Shown here: piece after piece, positions 29,464-39,084 of the stretch
Layout: every line of letters begins with the position of its first letter
How positions within the stretch are numbered: the first letter of the stretch is position 1
DNA from: an uncultured Aureimonas sp.
GTDB lineage: Bacteria; Pseudomonadota; Alphaproteobacteria; Rhizobiales; Rhizobiaceae
Length of the DNA: 64,000 bases
Direction: 5' to 3'
NCBI RefSeq assembly: GCF_913775355.1
Contig: NZ_CAJYIU010000041.1
Location: forward strand, 1,503 to 65,502
Program-made: the position numbers and the translations under genes
Notes under the pieces: generated by a model
The model's input: the letters and a program-made list of their open reading frames with translations, nothing else
Told to the model about the DNA's origin: nothing
The model's database searches: none

Positions 29464-30033
29464 TTAGTCCTTGGCGCGCTCGACGTAGGAGCCGTCCGCC
29501 GTCATCACCACGATGCGGGTGCCGGCCGCGATGTGCGGGGGAACCAGCGTGCGCACGCCGTTCGACAGGACGGCCGGCTTGTAGGACGAGGAGGCCGTCT
29601 GGCCCTTGGTGGTCGGCTCGGTCTCGGTGACCTCGTAGATCGCGCGCTGCGGTAGCTCGATCGAGATCGCAAGGCCGTTGTAGACGGCGACCTGAACCGC
29701 CATGCCTTCCTGCAGGTAGGGCGCGTAGTCGCCGACGACGCTCTCGGGCACCGCGACCTGGTCGAAGGTCTCCGGGTTCATGAAGTGGAAGCCCTCGTCG
29801 TCCGAGTACAGGAACGTGTGCTCGCGCTCCTCCACGAAGGCGCGCTCGACCTGCTCGGTGGTGCGGTAGCGGTCCGACACCTTCACGCCATCGGAAATGC
29901 GGCGCATGTCGAGCTGGGTGACGGGGGTGCCCTTGCCGGGGTGGATGTTCTCCGCGGACAGGATCACATAGAGCTTGCCGTCGTCGCGTTCGACGACGTT
30001 GCCTTTGCGGAGCGAACTGGCGATCACCTTCAC
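29464..30033 (-). CDS. efp: elongation factor P
   Basis: GTG start [13 protein letters not shown]; HPGKG loop with modifiable Lys; C-terminal GSYVERA. Confidence 0.96.
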
Positions 30034-30185
30034 GGGCTTTGTTCCTGATTTCGGTCTGATGTTGTAAGGGAGCTCGTCCGAGCCTCGATCCCCGGGCCCT
30101 AGCGCATCTGACGGTCCGCCGCCAGTCGGGCGGGTCCGTTTCGATCGGCCGCTCCAGCCAACGCGCCCCCTTGTCCAAGGCCGCC

Positions 30186-31238
30186 ATGACCGATGCCTCG
30201 CCCTGGTGGGCGCCCCATGTCCACGCCGATCGCCGCCCGCGGCTGATGCTGCGCAACGCCCTGTCCGGCGCGCTGCGCGCATGGTTCGGCGCACGCGATT
30301 TCGTCGAGGTCGAGGCCGGGGCGCTGCAGGTCTCGCCCGGCAACGAGGCGCATCTGGCGGCATTCGCCACGCTCGAGGCGCGTTCCGACGGCACGCGCCA
30401 GCCGCTCTACCTCCACACCTCGCCCGAGTTCGCCTGCAAGAAGCTCTTGGCGGCGGGCGAACAGCGATTGTTCTCGCTCGCGCCCGTCTACCGCAACGGC
30501 GAGCGCAGCGCGCTGCATCATCCTTCCTTCACGATGCTGGAATGGTACCGCGCCGGCGAGACCTACGACGCGCTGATGGCGGACTGCGCGGCGCTTCTGG
30601 CGCTCGCCGCCGACACGGCCGGCGTCCGGCGCTTCGCCTTCCGCGACCGGCGGGCCGACCCCTACTTCGAGCCTGCACGCATCAGCGTCGCCGAGGCGTT
30701 CCAGCTCTTTGCGGGCATCGACATCCTGGCGAGCGTCGAGCCGGGCGGCGCGACGGATCGCGACCAGCTGGCCGCGGCGGTCCGGGCGCTGGACCTGCGC
30801 ACCGCGCCCGACGACACCTGGGCCGATCTCTTCAGCCGCGTCCTGACGGAGCGGATCGAGCCGCGCCTCGGGCAGGGCCGTGCGACCATCCTCTACGACT
30901 ACCCGGTGCCGGAAGCGGCGCTGGCGCGCGTCAGCGCCGGCGATCCGCGCGTTGCCGAACGCTTCGAGCTCTACTGCTGCGGCGTGGAGCTTGCCAACGG
31001 CTTCGGCGAACTGACCGACGCCGCCGAGCAGCGCCGTCGCTTCATGGCGGAGATGGACGAGCGCGAACGCGTCTACGGCGAGCGCTATCCGCTGGACGAG
31101 GACTTCCTCGCGGCGCTAGGCGCGATGCCGGAGGCCAGCGGCATCGCGCTCGGCTTCGACCGGTTGGTGATGCTGGCGACCGGCGCCTCGCGCATCGAGG
31201 ACGTCGTCTGGACACCGGTCGCGGATATCCGCTCGTGA
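30186..31238 (+). CDS. epmA: EF-P lysine aminoacylase (GenX/PoxA)
   Basis: [46 protein letters not shown]; divergent from efp. Confidence 0.95.
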
Positions 31239-32284
31239 CGCGCCCCCTGCGCAGCGCCGCCGCGCTGGTCGAGGCCGGCCTCGCGCCGCCGGAGCGGCTG
31301 GCCGAACTGGAACAGGTGGCCGCGCGCTACGCCGTCTCGGTCACGCCCGACATGGCCGATCTCATCGACGACCCCGACGATCCGATCGGCCGGCAGTTCG
31401 TGCCGAGCGAGGCCGAGCTTCAGGCGACGCCCGAGGAGGATGCCGACCCGATCGGCGACGACGCGCATTCGCCGGTGGCGGGCATCGTCCACCGCTATCC
31501 CGACCGGGTGCTCCTCAAGCCGCTGCACGTCTGTCCGGTCTACTGCCGCTTCTGCTTCCGGCGCGAGATGGTGGGGCCGGACGGCAACGGCAGCCTGTCG
31601 GAGGCGGAACTCGACGCCGCGATCGCCTATATCGCCAGCCGGCCCGAGATCTGGGAGGTCGTGGTCACCGGGGGCGACCCGTTCCTCCTGTCGCCCCGCC
31701 GGGTGGAGGCGCTCGGGCGCGCGCTCGGGGCGATCGGACACGTCAAGGTCATGCGCTTCCACACGCGCGTGCCGGTGGTCGAGCCGGCGCGCGTCGATGC
31801 GGCGCTGGTCGCCGCGCTGCGCGCCTTTCCCGGCGCGACCTTCGTCGCGCTCCACGCCAACCACCCCCGCGAGTTCACCCCGGCCGCGCAGGCCGCGGTC
31901 GCCCGCCTCGTCGACGGCGGCGTGCCCCTCGTCAGCCAGTCGGTGCTCCTGCGCGGCGTCAACGACGACGCGGACACGTTGTCGCGTCTGATGCGCTGCT
32001 TCGTCGGGAACCGGATCAAGCCCTACTACCTCCACCAGGGCGATCTCGCGCCGGGAACCAGCCACCTGCGCACCACGGTGGCGAAAGGGCAGGCGCTGAT
32101 GAAGGGCCTTCGCGGCCAGATCTCCGGCCTTTGCCAGCCGATCTACGTGCTGGACATCCCTGGCGGCCATGGCAAGGTGCCAATCGGGCCCGGCTTCATC
32201 GAGGAGGTCGACGAGGCGTACGAGGTCACCGATCCGAGCGGGCAGGTGCATCGCTACCCGCCGACCGGCTACACGCCGAAGTAA
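31235..32284 (+). CDS. epmB: lysine 2,3-aminomutase (radical SAM, EF-P beta-lysylation)
   Basis: GTGA overlap; HRYPDRVL, CPVYCRFCFR, TGGDP, PYYLHQGD. Confidence 0.93.
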   Translation: MTRPLRSAAALVEAGLAPPERLAELEQVAARYAVSVTPDMADLIDDPDDPIGRQFVPSEAELQATPEEDADPIGDDAHSPVAGIVHRYPDRVLLKPLHVCPVYCRFCFRREMVGPDGNGSLSEAELDAAIAYIASRPEIWEVVVTGGDPFLLSPRRVEALGRALGAIGHVKVMRFHTRVPVVEPARVDAALVAALRAFPGATFVALHANHPREFTPAAQAAVARLVDGGVPLVSQSVLLRGVNDDADTLSRLMRCFVGNRIKPYYLHQGDLAPGTSHLRTTVAKGQALMKGLRGQISGLCQPIYVLDIPGGHGKVPIGPGFIEEVDEAYEVTDPSGQVHRYPPTGYTPK

Positions 32285-32446: not shown

Positions 32447-33022
32447 GTGAGCGACGTGCCCAGGCTTTGGAAGGCGATGATGCAGACGGCGATGCAGATG
32501 TTCGATCCCGAACCGGCCAAGGGGCCGCGCGATCAGATCGCCGCGCTCCCGGTCCGCCTGCGCGAGGACGGCGAACTGGAAGTGCTGCTGGTCACCTCGC
32601 GCGAGACGCGCCGCTGGATCATTCCCAAGGGCTGGCCGATGAACGGCCTCGACGACCACGATGCGGCGGGTGTCGAGGCCCGCGAGGAGGCCGGGGTTAA
32701 GGGCAAGCTTCTGGCCGAGCCCGTCGGACGCTACGCCTACTGGCAGCGCGGCCGGGTCGAGACCCGCCTTCTGCAGGTGGACGTCTTCCTCCTGCGCGTC
32801 GAGAAGGCGCTGAAGACCTGGAAGGAAAAGGACCAGCGCGAGCGGCGCTGGTTTTCGATCGTCGATGCCGCCGACCACGTGCAGGAGGCCGACCTCGGCC
32901 AGCTCTTCCTGCGGCTTCCCGGCCATGAACCCGCCCGGCGTTTCCTCGTCCTCGACGGCAAGCGGGCCAGGAAGGCGGCGCGGGACGGACGGCCGTCGGC
33001 GGGTGGATCGGGTCCCGGTTGA
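32447..33022 (+). CDS. NUDIX hydrolase (DIPP/Ap6A-like)
   Basis: QIAALP, EVLLVTSRETRRWIIPKGWP, Nudix box ending EAREEAGV; start may be 32477. Confidence 0.85.
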   Translation: MSDVPRLWKAMMQTAMQMFDPEPAKGPRDQIAALPVRLREDGELEVLLVTSRETRRWIIPKGWPMNGLDDHDAAGVEAREEAGVKGKLLAEPVGRYAYWQRGRVETRLLQVDVFLLRVEKALKTWKEKDQRERRWFSIVDAADHVQEADLGQLFLRLPGHEPARRFLVLDGKRARKAARDGRPSAGGSGPG

Positions 33023-33147
33023 TCCCGCCCCGCGAGAGGGTTAAGAGCGGGGAACAGGTCCACGCAAGGTCCGGCCGGGCGCAGCCCGGTCCGTGATCGG
33101 ACCGTTTCGGCGCGCCGCGCCCTCGTTCAACCAGCTCCCGGATCGGA

Positions 33148-34539
33148 ATGCCGCTCTTCGACGTCCTGCCGCCGGATCTCTTCAAGCCGTTGGCGGCTCC
33201 GGCGAAGCGGCTCTATTCCGACCTCCTCCTCCACATCTTCCACGAGACCTTCGAGCCCTCGGCCGAGGCGCCGCGACGGGTCGACGTCCTGCGCGCGATC
33301 GAGACGTTCCTTGCCGCACGCAATGACGACGAGCCGGACATGCCGGCTGGCCGACCCGAGGAGCGGGCGCGGGCCGTTTACGACCGTCTTGTCGAGACCG
33401 GCTGGATGGTCGAGCACCGCGACCGCTACCTGCGCCTCGTCGACCTCGATCCGGAGGCGGCCGGGCTTCTCCATCTTCTCTCGCGCATCGAGCGCGGCGA
33501 GACGCGCTCCTACGGCGGCGCGGTGCTGGAGGTGTTGAGCGGCCTCGAGGGTGCCGCCGCCCATCCCGACGAGCGCTCCGAAGCCCTGCGCAACGCGCTG
33601 CGCGGTGCCGAGGACTTCATGGGCCATATGCGCACGGTCGCGGTCTCGCTCCGGCAGGCGGAGGAGCGCATCCTGCGCCAGCCCTCCTTGCGCGCGATCT
33701 TCCACCAGTTCTTCGGCGACTTCGTCGAGCGGCACCTCATCCGCGACTTCAAGACGCTTCAGACCAAGGACAACCCGTTCCGCTTCCGCACTGCGATCAT
33801 CCGGCAGGCGACGGAGATGTTCGAGAACCGGGCGCTGCTCTCGACGCTCGGCGATGCCTATGGGCGCGAGGGGCGGCTCGAGGACGGCGCCGACGGCGAG
33901 GCGGAGATCCGCGAGGAACTGTCGCGCATCGTCCACGTCTTCGAGGCCGCCGAGCGGCACCTCGACGCGATCAACGCGACGGTCGCGCGCATCGAGCGAC
34001 GCATGGTCAACGCCGCGCGCCAGATGGACCGCATCGCCGCCGGCTCGACCGCGGAACTCGCCGAGGCGCTGCGGCTCGTCGCCTTGCGGCCGGAGGAGGG
34101 CGAGGTGCCGGTCGCGCCGATGCTGATCCCGCGCATCCTGCCGCTCGGGCCGCCGCATGTGCCGGCGCCCCGACGCGACAAGGCGCCGGTGGCTGTGGTG
34201 GCCTTGCGCGATCTGACGCCCGATCCGGCCGCCGTGCTCTATGCCCGCGCCAAGGAGGAATACGTCCGCCGCACCCGCGTCACCGCGCCGGTGCTGTCGG
34301 CCTATGTCGAGCGCGTCCTCGGGCCGCGCGCGGAGGTGCGGGCGCGCGACGTGACGCTCGCCTCGGTCGACGACTTCGTCGCCTTCCAGCGCCTGCGCGA
34401 ATTGCCCTCGATCTTCGGCGGCCTGCTGGCCAAGCGCTACGAGATCGAGTTTCTCGAGGACCGCTGCGCCAACCGCTGGATCACCTGCCAGGACTTCGTG
34501 ATCCGCCGCCGGCCGGGAGCCCATGTCGATGCCGCCTGA
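33148..34539 (+). CDS. jetA: Wadjet JetA / MksF-like kleisin subunit (DUF5716/DUF3375-like)
   Basis: 463 aa helical protein with winged-helix-like segment RLVETGWM; first gene of overlapping three-gene SMC operon. Confidence 0.7.
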   Translation: MPLFDVLPPDLFKPLAAPAKRLYSDLLLHIFHETFEPSAEAPRRVDVLRAIETFLAARNDDEPDMPAGRPEERARAVYDRLVETGWMVEHRDRYLRLVDLDPEAAGLLHLLSRIERGETRSYGGAVLEVLSGLEGAAAHPDERSEALRNALRGAEDFMGHMRTVAVSLRQAEERILRQPSLRAIFHQFFGDFVERHLIRDFKTLQTKDNPFRFRTAIIRQATEMFENRALLSTLGDAYGREGRLEDGADGEAEIREELSRIVHVFEAAERHLDAINATVARIERRMVNAARQMDRIAAGSTAELAEALRLVALRPEEGEVPVAPMLIPRILPLGPPHVPAPRRDKAPVAVVALRDLTPDPAAVLYARAKEEYVRRTRVTAPVLSAYVERVLGPRAEVRARDVTLASVDDFVAFQRLRELPSIFGGLLAKRYEIEFLEDRCANRWITCQDFVIRRRPGAHVDAA

Positions 34540-35233
34540 GACCGACGAATTCCGCGACATCGTCGACGGCGACTGGGCCGGCGGCCACATCGCCGGCAAG
34601 CGACCGACGGCCGACGAGATGACGCGCGCGCTGCAGGTGATGATGACGCGCCAGTGCGTCTATTCGCATACGCCCAATGTCGGGCGCACCTACGATCTCG
34701 TGCGCGCCTATCCGACCTTCTTCGAGCGCTATTTCGGCTCGCTCGGCTACCGGCTCATGGTCTCGCCGCGCGACCAGATGGTGGCGCTCGCCGTGCCCGC
34801 CGACGCGCCGCGCTACGACGGCCTCTTCGAGCGGCTGCGCAAGGACGAGACGATCGTGCTCCTCGCGCTGCGTCTTCTCTGGGAGGAGGCGCTGCGCGCC
34901 CACGAGGCCGGCGACGGGAGCGTCGTCACCGCCACCACCGACGATCTCGTCGATCGCATCGCGGCGCTGACGCAGGCTCCGCCGCCGGAGGAGGTCCGGC
35001 TTCTCGAGATCCTGCGCACCTTCGCCCGCCACGGCGCCCTGCGCCTTGGCGAGCGCGACCGCGTGCGCCGCCTGTCGCCGCTGACGGTTCTGCCCGGCGT
35101 CGGCATTCTCGTGCCCGATTCCTATGTGAAGGAGCTGATCCTGTGGGCGAGCGCCCCGGTGGCCCTTCCCTCCGGGGCGAGAACCGCCGACAACGATCGC
35201 GACGCGTCGCCCGGGGACGAGCCGAATGTATAG
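34523..35233 (+). CDS. jetB: Wadjet JetB / MksE-like KITE subunit (DUF4194-like)
   Basis: 236 aa; YFGSLGYRL, RLRKDETIVLLALRLLWEE typical of DUF4194; 17-bp overlap with jetA. Confidence 0.75.
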   Translation: MSMPPETDEFRDIVDGDWAGGHIAGKRPTADEMTRALQVMMTRQCVYSHTPNVGRTYDLVRAYPTFFERYFGSLGYRLMVSPRDQMVALAVPADAPRYDGLFERLRKDETIVLLALRLLWEEALRAHEAGDGSVVTATTDDLVDRIAALTQAPPPEEVRLLEILRTFARHGALRLGERDRVRRLSPLTVLPGVGILVPDSYVKELILWASAPVALPSGARTADNDRDASPGDEPNV

Positions 35234-38200
35234 CCTCAGGCGGATCTCGCTTTCGAACTGGTACCTGATCGACGCCAAGGACATCGACATCCGCGGCGAG
35301 GCGGCGCTGATCGGCCCGACGGGTGCCGGCAAGACCTCGATCCAGGATGCGATCCAGACCGTCATCACCGGCGCCAGCCAGAACCGGCTGAACCTCAACG
35401 CCAGCGCCTCCGGTCGCTCCTCGCGCTCGGTGCTGGAATACTGCCTCGGGATGACGGGCGATCCGGCCGAGAACGGCCGCCCGCTGCGTTCATCCTGCGA
35501 GACGCTCCTCGTCCTCACCTTCGCCAACGACCAGACCGGCGAGCCGATCGCCGTCGGCATCGCCATGGCCGCCCGCCAGGGCGACACGCGCGAGGAGATC
35601 CTGTCGCGCTTCATCGCGCCCGGCCATGCCTTCTCGCTGGAAGCCGTCCGGCGCCGCGAGAACGGCGTCGAGACGGTGATGCCGTGGAGCGAGATCGCCG
35701 CCGACCTGCGGGCGAACTGCCCGGCCTTTGCCGAGTACAAGGCGTCGGCCGAGAAGTTCACCGCCGAGATGCTGGTCGCCATGCGCGGGCCGGCGGCGGC
35801 GCCCAACGCGCGCCATTTCCTGCGCGCCTTCTCCAACGCGCTCGCCTTCCGCCCGATCTTCGACCCGACCGTCTTCGTGCGCGATTTCGTGCTGGAGCCC
35901 GATCCGCTCGACGTCGAGCGCGTGCGTGCCTCGATCGCGACCTGGCGCGAGCTGGAGGGCCTCATCGAGGAGGCCGAGGCGAAGCACGCCCACGTTTCGC
36001 GCATCGCGTCGAAATTCCAGACCTGGGGGCGCGAGCGCCTCGCGGCCGATCTCGGCCGCTGGCGCTCCGCCGCCTTCCAGGCGCGCCGCACGGGGCAGGA
36101 ATGGCTCGGCATCCGGCGCACGCTGGCCGAGCGGCAGGGTGAACTGTCGATCGAGCAGGGCGTTCTGGCGACGCGGCGCGAATGGATCCGCTCGTGGGAC
36201 GAGGAAATCCGCGACAAGACCGCCCGTCTGGCCGCCGGCGGCGGCGAAGGACGGTTGCGCGAGATCGCAGCCGAAACGCGTCTGAACGAACGCGACATTC
36301 GCGAGATCGAGCAGGGTTGGGGCCGGATCGCAGCCGCGCTTGGCACGCTCGCCCGTCTCGTGCTGCGCCATGCGGCCGACCTGCCGCCGGGCGCGGTCGA
36401 GGCCGGCCGGGCGGCCGCCGAGGCGCTGACCCTGGTGCGCGACGGCGACAGCTTCCTCGACCATGCGCGCGGCAAGGGCGACCGGCTGGAGGACCTCGTG
36501 GCGGCGGCGCGCCGCGCGGACGGGTTCGAGGCGGCGCTCGACAAGGCGACCGAGCGCCTCGGGAGCCGCGCCCATGCGCTGGAGGCCGAGCTCGAGCGCC
36601 TGCGCGGGGCCCTGTCGCGGCCGAAAGGGGCGGGCGGCAGCCTGTCGCGCGAGGCCTCGCGCCTTCTCGCCCAGCTTCAGGCGGCCGGCATTCCGGCCGT
36701 GCCGCTCTGCGACGTGGTCGATGTCGCCGATCCGAGCTGGCAGTACGCCGCCGAGGCTCTCCTCGGCCGAGGCCGCGAAGCGCTGATCGTCGAGCCGGCG
36801 CTGCTCTCGCAGGCCTTCGACCTGATGTGGCGCGACCGGAACGCCTTTGCCGGCTGCACGCTGGTCAAGACCTCCGCGACGCGCTCGACCAACGCCCGCC
36901 CGCCCGCCGGCAGCATTCTCGAGGCGCTGACGACCGACGATCCGCATGCGCGTGCCTTCCTCAATGTGCGCATCGGCGCCTTCCGCAAGGCCGAAACCGA
37001 CGCCGAACTCGACCGGCTGGAGCGCGGCGTCATGCGCAACGGCAAGACCTCGTCGGGCATGGGCCTCTCGGTCCAGCGCGACCTCGGCGATCTTCTGTTC
37101 GGGCGCGGCAACGCAATGAGCGACGGCGCCGGGCTCGAGGCGGAGCGGGGGCGGCTGGAGGTGGAACTCGTTGAGGTGCGCGCCCGGCTTCGCGAGGCGC
37201 GCGAGGGGGCGCGGGCGCTGGGGCCGGCTCTGGCCGCCCTGTCGCCGGAGGCCGGACCGGCCGAACTCGCGCGCCGCGCGCTCACCGTGCGCCAGCGCGC
37301 CGACGAACTGGTCCGCGACCGCAAGGCGCTGGAAGACGGCGAGGCGGCGACGCTGAAGGCCGAGATCGAGGAGGTCCGGGCCGAGCGCGATGCCTATGCG
37401 ACGGAACTCGCCGAAGAGGTCGAGCCCAAGGTCGAGACGCTGCGCCAGACGGTGGCGACGCTGACCGCGCGCGCCGACATGGCGGCCGAGCGGCACAGGG
37501 CGGCGTTCGCGCGCCGGCGGCGGAGCTGGGCGGTGCTCGCGACCGATGCCACCGCCGAGCTTCTCGCCCTCGTACCGGCCGGCGACGGTGCGCCGCGCAC
37601 GCTCGCCGGCGTGGCCGCCGCCTTGCGGGCCGAGATCACTGGGGGCGAGGCCGAGCGGCGCGATGCGCCGGCGTGGCTGGCGACCCGGCGCAACGAGGCG
37701 GAGGCGGCCGCCGAGAGCGCCGAGGGCACGGCACGGCGCGAGCAGCTGTCGGCGCTGCGCGAGCTCACCGAATATGCCGGACGCTGGAGTGCGCCGGTGC
37801 CGGCCTTCGACGGCGAGACCATGGTCGCGGCGCTCGCCTGGGTGCTGGAGGAAACGGCGCGGCTGGAGACGCACGAACTGCGCGGCCACCGCGACGCCTG
37901 CGTGAAGGCGGCGGCCGAGATGCGCCGGATGATGCGCGAGGATCTCCTGGCGCGCCTGTCGGAAAAGCTGGCGCGCGTCGGCTACCGCCTCGCCGGCATC
38001 AACCGGCTCCTCAAGCGCCACCGCTTCACCGGCCAGACCTACGCGTTCTCCTATGCGGTGAATGGCCGCTTCGAGGGGATGCACGACCTCGCGCAGCGCG
38101 CCGCCGACGGACAGCTGTCCGACGAGACGTTCGAAAGCTCGATGGGCGAGGTCGAGGCGATGATCGAGGGGGCGGAGGATGCGGCGCTGCTCGCCGATTA

Positions 38201-38669
38201 CCGCCAGTACTACACGTTCGAGATCGTGATGAGCGACGCCGACGGCAATCGCACCACGCTGTCGTCGCGCGCCATGAAGGGTTCGGGCGGCGAGGCGCAG
38301 GTGCCGTTCTACGTCGCGATCGCCGCTTCGCTGGCGCTCGCCTACTTCCCCGGCCACATCGCCGGGCGTCCGGTCGGCATGGGCCTTGCGCTCTTCGACG
38401 AGGCCTTCAACAAGCTCGACGTGCCGAACACGCAGGCGCTCCTGCGCTTCTTCCGCGACATGGGGCTTCAGCTCCTGATCGCAGGCCCCGAGGACAAGCG
38501 CGCGACCTTCACCGAGGTTCTCGACACGATCATCCTCGTCAACAAGTCGCTGGACGGGCGCGCGGTCTACATCGACACGGAATATCCCGGCGAGACCGCC
38601 AAGGAGGCGCTGGCACGCCTCAACCCCGACCATCGCGGGGTGGAGGGGTTCCGCTCGGCCGCCGAATAG
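35226..38669 (+). CDS. jetC: Wadjet JetC / MksB-like SMC ATPase
   Basis: 1147 aa; Walker A GPTGAGKTS, long coiled coils with central hinge region, signature GSGGE, Walker B LFDEAF, D-loop NKLD. Confidence 0.85.
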   Translation: MYSLRRISLSNWYLIDAKDIDIRGEAALIGPTGAGKTSIQDAIQTVITGASQNRLNLNASASGRSSRSVLEYCLGMTGDPAENGRPLRSSCETLLVLTFANDQTGEPIAVGIAMAARQGDTREEILSRFIAPGHAFSLEAVRRRENGVETVMPWSEIAADLRANCPAFAEYKASAEKFTAEMLVAMRGPAAAPNARHFLRAFSNALAFRPIFDPTVFVRDFVLEPDPLDVERVRASIATWRELEGLIEEAEAKHAHVSRIASKFQTWGRERLAADLGRWRSAAFQARRTGQEWLGIRRTLAERQGELSIEQGVLATRREWIRSWDEEIRDKTARLAAGGGEGRLREIAAETRLNERDIREIEQGWGRIAAALGTLARLVLRHAADLPPGAVEAGRAAAEALTLVRDGDSFLDHARGKGDRLEDLVAAARRADGFEAALDKATERLGSRAHALEAELERLRGALSRPKGAGGSLSREASRLLAQLQAAGIPAVPLCDVVDVADPSWQYAAEALLGRGREALIVEPALLSQAFDLMWRDRNAFAGCTLVKTSATRSTNARPPAGSILEALTTDDPHARAFLNVRIGAFRKAETDAELDRLERGVMRNGKTSSGMGLSVQRDLGDLLFGRGNAMSDGAGLEAERGRLEVELVEVRARLREAREGARALGPALAALSPEAGPAELARRALTVRQRADELVRDRKALEDGEAATLKAEIEEVRAERDAYATELAEEVEPKVETLRQTVATLTARADMAAERHRAAFARRRRSWAVLATDATAELLALVPAGDGAPRTLAGVAAALRAEITGGEAERRDAPAWLATRRNEAEAAAESAEGTARREQLSALRELTEYAGRWSAPVPAFDGETMVAALAWVLEETARLETHELRGHRDACVKAAAEMRRMMREDLLARLSEKLARVGYRLAGINRLLKRHRFTGQTYAFSYAVNGRFEGMHDLAQRAADGQLSDETFESSMGEVEAMIEGAEDAALLADYRQYYTFEIVMSDADGNRTTLSSRAMKGSGGEAQVPFYVAIAASLALAYFPGHIAGRPVGMGLALFDEAFNKLDVPNTQALLRFFRDMGLQLLIAGPEDKRATFTEVLDTIILVNKSLDGRAVYIDTEYPGETAKEALARLNPDHRGVEGFRSAAE

Positions 38670-38681
38670 CGGGCGACAACG

Positions 38682-38717
38682 AAAAACCTCCCGCGCGCCG
38701 GTCGGGCACGCGGGAGG
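38682..38717 (-). terminator. intrinsic terminator of csbD (convergent with jetC)
   Basis: cctcccgcg...cgcgggagg stem with T5 tail on minus strand. Confidence 0.7.
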
Positions 38718-38742
38718 CGTCAGGCATGGTCAGTCCGCTCGA

Positions 38743-39084
38743 TCAGTCGCGGTCGCGGGCCAGAAGGCCGAGCACGAAGCCGACGGCACCGGCCGCCAGC
38801 AGCGACGAGAGCGGATGCTCGTGGATCGTCCGGCGCACGACGCGCGTGCCTTCCTCGGCGTAGGCGCCGGCGTTCTCGTAGAGGTCGGTCGCATACTTCT
38901 GCGCATCGTGGGTCGCCTCGCGCACGGCATCCTTGCCCTGGCCGAGAATGTTCTGCGCGGCCCCTTCGGCCTGGCGGCGACGGCCTTCGGCCGAGTCCTT
39001 CTCGGACCCGAACGCGTCACCCAGAGCGCCCTGCACCTTGCCGCCAAGCTCCTTGGCGGCGCCCTCGAGACGGTTGTTGTCCAT
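38743..39084 (-). CDS. csbD: CsbD-like stress protein with C-terminal DUF883-like hydrophobic tail
   Basis: NRLEGAAKELGGKVQGALGDAFG...EGRRRQAEG...QGKDAV; C-terminal HPLSSLLAAGAVGFVLG. Confidence 0.85.
   Translation of the reverse strand: MDNNRLEGAAKELGGKVQGALGDAFGSEKDSAEGRRRQAEGAAQNILGQGKDAVREATHDAQKYATDLYENAGAYAEEGTRVVRRTIHEHPLSSLLAAGAVGFVLGLLARDRD

Follow-up and report, generated by a model that had tools for sequence, protein, structure and literature searches.

A nuclease-less type I Wadjet operon in Aureimonas and Methylobacterium as a candidate chromosomal condensin of SMC-less hosts

The window analysed here, a 64,000-nucleotide stretch of DNA from an uncultured Aureimonas sp. (contig C41 of a 4.2-Mb, 337-contig assembly, genome G000, 98.7% complete), carries a three-gene operon, jetABC, which encodes the kleisin-like, KITE and SMC-type subunits of a type I Wadjet system without the JetD nuclease. 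The operon belongs to an alphaproteobacterial clade, found in Aurantimonadaceae, Methylobacterium/Methylorubrum and a few other Hyphomicrobiales, at the base of which jetD was lost a single time, and its three genes are under strong purifying selection. The sequence evidence somewhat favours a domesticated, nuclease-free Wadjet that may serve as a chromosomal condensin in hosts without SMC, in the manner of MukBEF.

Subunits of the jetABC operon

The first gene, jetA (33148..34539, plus strand; 463 aa), encodes a kleisin-like subunit, the analogue of MksF/MukF, which matched the Pfam JetA family (PF18982) with 310 bits against a cut-off of 26.2 and the PADLOC model JetA1 (PDLC00466) with 533 bits. 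It is followed by jetB (34523..35233, plus strand; 236 aa), encoding a KITE subunit analogous to MksE/MukE that matched DUF4194 (PF13835; 61 bits, cut-off 32.7) and PADLOC JetB1 (PDLC00475; 300 bits). The third gene, jetC (35226..38669, plus strand; 1147 aa), encodes an SMC-type ABC ATPase with the Pfam domains AAA_29 and SbcC_Walker_B, which was matched end to end by PADLOC JetC1 (PDLC00506; 1393 bits). These three models were the top-scoring PADLOC models for the window proteins. Based on the open reading frame coordinates, jetA and jetB overlap by 17 bp and jetB and jetC by 8 bp. The JetC sequence contains Walker A (GPTGAGKT, residues 30–37), signature (SGGE, 1020–1023), Walker B (LALFDE, 1054–1059) and D-loop motifs. 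A first-pass annotation, made from the sequence alone, had described three overlapping genes for kleisin, KITE and SMC proteins with intact ATPase motifs, and the coordinates, Pfam and PADLOC all agreed with this description.

Pfam scanning revealed no extra domain fused to JetA, JetB or JetC, and none of the operon proteins matched the MukB, MukE or MukF families (E ≤ 0.01). JetC received 27.8 bits with the canonical SMC model TIGR02168 (SMC_prok_B; cut-off 567) and is therefore not a canonical SMC. A sequence search of solved structures produced a weak match to the JetC head only (8dk1, E = 5e-11) and no match with JetA or JetB. The operon has the JetA, JetB and JetC of a type I Wadjet and lacks a cognate in-operon JetD. 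It agrees with the nuclease-less members of the Wadjet group, which are recognised by an F-E-B operon and by an absence of MksG/JetD that is conserved among relatives, and it falls outside MukBEF proper and, by the TIGR02168 cut-off, outside Smc-ScpAB.

No JetD gene is adjacent to the operon, as had been noted before. Only 73 bp separate the end of jetC from a convergent csbD-like gene (38743-39084, minus strand), with no gene in between, and a GC-rich hairpin (38686-38718, no strand assigned; 14-bp stem) starts 17 bp past jetC, so that there is no space for a fourth gene. The hairpin has a predicted energy of -41.1 kcal/mol (z = -4.1). A terminator had been noted shortly after jetC; the hairpin is indeed present, but its T-tract lies on the minus strand, and it is thus formally the terminator of csbD.

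Loss of jetD across the clade

Comparison of synteny in relatives and calculation of dN/dS had been suggested by the first-pass annotation, and both were conducted. None of nine orthologous loci (JetC identity 64–97%) had a JetD within 8 kb. The gene order epmB-NUDIX-jetABC-csbD, with efp-epmAB upstream, was kept in six of the nine, representing six species, while the other three were situated in different contexts with convergent housekeeping genes after the operon. Window-type jetA was present in 11 of 22 Aureimonas species genomes, one of them with the operon split at contig ends. The Pfam domain JetD_C (PF09983) could not be detected in any of the ten window-type genomes other than that of the window (nine intact, one split); the only JetD_C among the 22 genomes was a copy on contig C108 of the window's own genome, which is considered below. 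In jetABC-free Aureimonas, no clean empty site with a definable insertion or deletion boundary could be found when A. glaciei and Aureimonas sp. AU12 were compared: A. glaciei has its NUDIX homologue in another context, and AU12 retains efp-epmAB with NUDIX, jetABC and csbD missing downstream.

A survey of the order, in which 401 genomes were scanned for JetA type and JetD_C, revealed window-type JetA (42–44% identity) in three Methylobacterium genomes (G277, G435 and G461), none of which had JetD_C. Canonical-type JetA (25–28% identity) was, in contiguous assemblies, always accompanied by a same-strand JetD_C approximately 5 kb downstream. Homology searching further extended the clade to Roseibium, to many metagenomic sequences and to Methylobacterium/Methylorubrum at large, and the operon was also found in Mesorhizobium sp. 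SP-1A and Pararhizobium sp. BT-229.

A profile-guided sweep gathered 80 named loci, and a total of 93 clade loci were searched in all reading frames using purpose-built hidden Markov models (HMMs) made from nine diverse JetD proteins. DUF3322 (PF11795) had also been considered as a probe for JetD; it gave no match in the window's genome, missing even the genuine JetD on C108, and was replaced by JetD_C and the purpose-built HMMs. JetD was detected in two loci, a Rhodospirillaceae metagenome-assembled genome (MAG; L054) and an alphaproteobacterial MAG (L062), and 91 of the 93 were free of JetD. In both exceptions jetD directly follows jetC, and Pfam and PADLOC confirmed it as JetD1; since Pfam JetD_C scored 55–57 bits on these two proteins, its sensitivity was adequate for the lineage. 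L072, from an 'uncultured Nakamurella sp.' MAG, is a short contig whose JetA is nested inside the Methylobacterium clade, and L200, from an 'uncultured Bifidobacterium sp.' MAG, is a short contig with an alphaproteobacterial EpmB; both are most likely contigs mis-binned in those MAGs.

The layout of the operon differs in Methylobacteriaceae. In Methylorubrum extorquens (L013, CP073633), four unrelated genes part jetAB from jetC, jetC stands directly upstream of rpsL, and no jetD is present at the locus; the same absence was seen in two long metagenomic contigs. In many Methylobacterium/Methylorubrum, jetC lies 1.8–5 kb from jetAB, with genes for a LysR regulator, a glyoxalase and a hydrolase intervening (displaced jetC at L013, L057, L066, L071, L073-L078, L081, L087, L089-L092, L094, L100 and L106). 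The displaced Methylobacterium jetC still co-evolves with jetA.

A phylogenetic tree of 89 JetA sequences, rooted on five canonical JetABCD systems, recovered the 81 JetD-less sequences together as a single clade (SH-aLRT 97), with L054 and L062 outside. Two branches within this clade received 100% support each, one of Aurantimonadaceae/Mesorhizobium/Pararhizobium and one of Methylobacteriaceae. The JetC tree (43 sequences) likewise grouped the 36 JetD-less sequences in one clade with a support of 99, and resolved L062 and then L054 as its successive sister lineages. A single change of the JetD state suffices on the JetA tree and on the JetC tree, which indicates that jetD was lost once. The two MAGs, the nearest JetD-bearing relatives, share 36–41% identity with the window proteins; their long branches make their exact placement less certain, whereas the monophyly of the JetD-less group is unaffected.

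In comparisons with the two closest species, dN/dS was 0.07 for jetA, 0.12–0.23 for jetB and 0.055–0.065 for jetC. The flanking genes in the same species gave 0.16–0.18 (NUDIX), 0.17 (dak regulator) and 0.02–0.07 (csbD), after exclusion of pairs with aberrant values for over-long epmB and dak regulator reading frames, so that jetA and jetC lie below their NUDIX neighbour and are level with or under the dak regulator and csbD. In Methylobacterium, jetA and the displaced jetC together gave 0.06–0.22, and the displaced jetC 0.06–0.19. The Walker A, signature and Walker B motifs were conserved in all 36 aligned JetD-less JetC proteins. The low omega values and the invariant ATPase motifs exclude simple decay, and the dN/dS of approximately 0.06–0.2 answered that part of the earlier proposal in favour of constraint. 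The suggestion of the first-pass annotation, a domesticated SMC complex that has no nuclease and differs from a standard Wadjet, gained support from the single jetD loss, the purifying selection, the housekeeping contexts and the lack of JetD in relatives.

SMC in the hosts and the possible role of JetABC

The presence of canonical SMC was judged from the SMC protein alone, using TIGR02168 with internal positive controls together with tblastn, which superseded a crude motif-based search. TIGR02168 gave no match in the 22 Aureimonas genomes, three of which are single-contig assemblies; the background was 24–35 bits and the controls were called correctly. No match could be found either when the SMC proteins of three relatives were compared with the window's genome by tblastn. 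Among one genome per genus of the same GTDB family, SMC was present in 103 of 120 genera at approximately 850–880 bits, and it was also absent from 16 further genera, five of which have genomes of 1.1–1.5 Mb. In the Aureimonas species that have it, jetABC is the only SMC-kleisin-KITE complex, apart from the additional Wadjet on C108 of the window strain.

The relationship is sharper in Methylobacterium/Methylorubrum. Profile searching of 61 species genomes revealed SMC in 8 and its absence in 53, and JetA in 52. No genome had both JetA and SMC, 52 had JetA without SMC, 8 had SMC without JetA, and one had neither (Fisher's exact p = 3e-9, kinship ignored). The eight SMC-bearing genomes are large (5.7–7.8 Mb). 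A second condensin of the auxiliary kind known from Pseudomonas, which had been proposed for the operon at first, does not agree with these observations, as all 22 Aureimonas genomes lack SMC and the operon and SMC are mutually exclusive in Methylobacterium.

Under the condensin reading, the operon would descend from a type I JetABCD plasmid-restriction system through the single loss of jetD at the base of the clade. A complex of a JetC ATPase dimer with JetA as kleisin and JetB as KITE subunit would load on DNA and extrude loops driven by ATP. With no Toprim nuclease to recruit, JetABC might then act on the chromosome as a condensin-like organiser, and it could at least partly fill the role of Smc-ScpAB, as MukBEF does in enterobacteria. 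Loop extrusion, chromosomal action and functional substitution of SMC by JetABC are what we infer from the sequences. A stronger version, to which we give rather less than even credence, holds that the nuclease-less type I Wadjet replaced Smc-ScpAB as the sole SMC-kleisin condensin in most Methylobacterium/Methylorubrum and has the same role in the jetABC-bearing, SMC-less Aureimonas. A replacement in the style of MukBEF would then have happened a second time, independently and much more recently, with nuclease-bearing sisters only about 60% of residues away.

Several observations weigh against a condensin role. The SMC-bearing Methylobacterium may form one basal clade, which would make the exclusion pattern a single event, and in that case the Fisher p value overstates independence. 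Eleven of the 22 Aureimonas species have neither SMC nor window-type jetABC, and window-type JetA is likewise missing from approximately 11 further SMC-less genera of the family with genomes of normal size. SMC-less hosts can thus do without JetABC, and in this lineage the loss of SMC either came before JetABC or was unconnected with it; the association between JetA and SMC is weaker in the Aureimonas lineage than in Methylobacterium. A patchiness of 50% in Aureimonas is typical of defence systems too. In addition, M. phyllosphaerae P14 (L066) and M. oryzae TC3-10 (L078) carry jetC in fragments, one Methylobacterium genome (G593) has a frameshift in jetA, and at 11 Methylobacterium loci no jetC was found within 9 kb of jetAB; such cases hint at dispensability.

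Among the alternatives, defence without cleavage, or with an unlinked effector other than JetD, fares best, and we regard it as unlikely though deserving of weight. JetABC would in this case recognise small circular DNA by extruding it completely and would then compact or silence it or disturb its segregation, as Smc5/6 does with extrachromosomal DNA, or pass it to a nuclease encoded elsewhere. The ancestral system restricted plasmids and the closest relatives outside the clade keep JetD; the operon occurs in only 11 of 22 Aureimonas species, a defence-like patchiness; and PADLOC and NCBI label the clade proteins as Wadjet. One metagenomic member also lies close to an AbiEi/AbiEii pair (MAG GCA_036704275.1, L016:17818-19431, approximately 3 kb downstream, with jetC called in fragments), the sole defence-like neighbour seen in the clade. 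However, no neighbour family other than jetA, jetB and jetC was common to 20 genomic contexts, and neither this nor the lack of fused domains gives any sign of a replacement effector; coupling to a different effector, the other option raised in the first-pass annotation, was therefore left without support. The operon is situated among housekeeping genes and not in a defence island. Defence also does not predict the Methylobacterium pattern, in which the operon is near-universal (52 of 61), follows species groups and is exactly complementary to SMC. M. extorquens, moreover, is routinely transformed with small broad-host-range plasmids.

Another chromosomal role unrelated to the absence of SMC, such as support of repair or recombination or the handling of replication and segregation intermediates, is less probable still. 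RecN, Smc5/6 and the mycobacterial MksB (PMC11329512) have roles of this kind, and jetABC is missing from half of the SMC-less Aureimonas species. Such a role would, however, leave the perfect complementarity of JetA and SMC in Methylobacterium unexplained, and no repair genes are linked to the operon.

A further reading concerns the window strain only, in which JetABC might use a JetD encoded elsewhere and thereby form a plasmid-cleaving Wadjet. A whole-genome profile search found JetD_C above the cut-off at one site only, on contig C108, where a second, complete type I jetABCD (C108:30865-37692; L003:6866-13693) is followed by a PAS histidine kinase gene. It encodes JetA of 506 aa (PDLC00453), JetB of 230 aa (PDLC00469), JetC of 1151 aa (PDLC00504) and, as the fourth gene, a full-length JetD1 of 390 aa (PDLC00521, 475 bits; JetD_C, 46.5 bits). 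A jetD elsewhere in the genome had been named in advance as evidence that would count against a nuclease-less complex, and formally one exists; it belongs, however, to an operon of its own whose JetA, JetB and JetC are 26%, 26% and 31% identical to those of the window. At identities of approximately 26–33%, the two systems are distant cousins and not recent duplicates. In the solved canonical complexes JetD docks onto the JetC heads (bioRxiv 10.1101/2023.11.03.565488), which makes cross-recognition doubtful at 31% JetC identity and borrowing of the C108 JetD unlikely. JetD_C was absent from the other 21 Aureimonas species genomes, so the C108 operon looks recently acquired, and ten of those genomes keep the window-type operon under purifying selection. 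A partnership in trans is therefore highly improbable and could not explain the clade.

The last alternative, a functionless Wadjet remnant decaying after the loss of jetD, could cite the few Methylobacterium members with fragmented jetC or frameshifted jetA, but it is effectively refuted by the selection data (omega 0.055–0.23 in Aureimonas and 0.06–0.22 in Methylobacterium, ATPase motifs invariant in 36 of 36), by three intact and translationally coupled frames, and by a clade that spans two families and keeps 64–97% identity within Aurantimonadaceae.

Genomic neighbourhood and comparison with known systems

The operon is flanked by genes of core functions. On its upstream side lie a cluster for EF-P beta-lysylation (29464-32284), consisting of efp on the minus strand, epmA and epmB, and a NUDIX gene (32447-33022) between epmB and jetA. 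EpmB is very widespread in Hyphomicrobiales/Caulobacterales, with at least 586 relatives among the 600 pattern matches listed, and its presence is ordinary for the group. The NUDIX protein was considered as a partner of JetABC and set aside, because it is linked to the operon only within the Aureimonas sub-group of the window and not in other contexts. The 125-bp intergenic region 5' of jetA (33023..33147, plus strand) is the presumed promoter; a promoter scan found no sigma-70 consensus in it, which is weak evidence in an alphaproteobacterium of 70% GC. Beyond csbD, the Pfam scan revealed a Dak1/sugar-binding regulator and then sugar ABC transporter genes. The same scan and a check of the flanking genes brought up no mobility genes among the operon neighbours, and the GC content of the window is flat at approximately 0.68–0.75, with an overall value of about 70%. 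The earlier picture of core-gene flanks (efp/epmAB, NUDIX, csbD), matching composition and no mobility genes was thus confirmed.

The JetD-less status of members of this clade is already on record. The listing of Bürmann et al., Cell 2025 (PMC7617805; Fig. S1A/Data S1) includes 'Aureimonas sp. AU20 ... FEB' and 'Methylobacterium durans ... FEB', where 'FEB' stands for MksF-E-B without G, and the coordinates match two clade members (G133 and G557); the bare observation is therefore not new. The searchable text and supplements of that paper contain no mention of the monophyly of the clade, of a single JetD loss or of complementarity with SMC. In the searchable literature, no report was found that connects MksB, Wadjet or the loss of SMC with Methylobacterium or Aureimonas. 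The delineation of the clade, the single JetD loss with surviving JetD-bearing sisters, and the absence of or complementarity with SMC hence appear to be unreported.

The relationship between defence SMC complexes such as Wadjet and housekeeping condensins such as MukBEF and MksBEF has yet to be worked out. According to speculation in reviews, MukBEF had a Wadjet-like ancestor and originated when the nuclease was lost; its divergence is, however, too great for the individual steps to be traced. The present clade offers a clearer case, with a defined single JetD loss, nuclease-bearing sisters, three constrained genes and SMC-less hosts, and it includes the genetically tractable M. extorquens, in which a switch from defence to condensin could be tested in a model organism. 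Annotation is affected as well. On nuclease-less Methylorubrum proteins, the PADLOC models JetA1 (PDLC00466) and JetC1 (PDLC00506) reached near-maximal scores of 746 and 1970 bits, and NCBI names the JetA of the clade 'Wadjet anti-phage system protein JetA family protein'. Such defence labels are probably a functional mis-annotation, which would inflate the counts of defence systems in phyllosphere Alphaproteobacteria.

Among known systems, the window operon is closest to type I Wadjet, JetABCD (MksBEFG/EptABCD), as described in E. coli GF4-3, P. aeruginosa PA14 and C. glutamicum. The two have the same three core families, gene order, overlapping genes and similar sizes, PADLOC groups the operon with type I, and the nearest outgroups of its clade are true JetABCD systems. 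The window operon differs in that no JetD lies next to it and no cognate JetD is encoded at another site, and in its housekeeping chromosomal context.

The MksBEF of P. aeruginosa and the MksB of M. smegmatis, compared by description, resemble the window operon as three-gene operons without JetD/MksG. They differ in that they coexist with Smc-ScpAB as auxiliary condensins, whereas the hosts of the present clade have no SMC. P. aeruginosa MksF is, in addition, assigned to another Pfam family, DUF3375. In P. aeruginosa, MksBEF serves to organise the chromosome (PMC7485682) and was probably derived from JetABCD via the loss of JetD (PMC10586767). A role of MksBEF or MksB in chromosome organisation and segregation has been demonstrated (PMC7485682; bioRxiv 10.1101/2020.05.18.101659; PMC11329512), and the mycobacterial MksB contributes to replisome positioning (PMC11329512).

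MukBEF and 'several other Wadjet group members' are likewise without MksG/JetD (bioRxiv 10.1101/2024.10.02.616235; PMC7617805). As a nuclease-free SMC-kleisin-KITE complex of the Wadjet group that serves as the chromosomal condensin in hosts without Smc-ScpAB, MukBEF offers a parallel, and the exclusion of JetA and SMC in Methylobacterium follows the same pattern. Unlike MukBEF, the window operon is still much nearer to nuclease-bearing Wadjet, at 36–41% identity, which suggests a younger event that was independent of the one in MukBEF.

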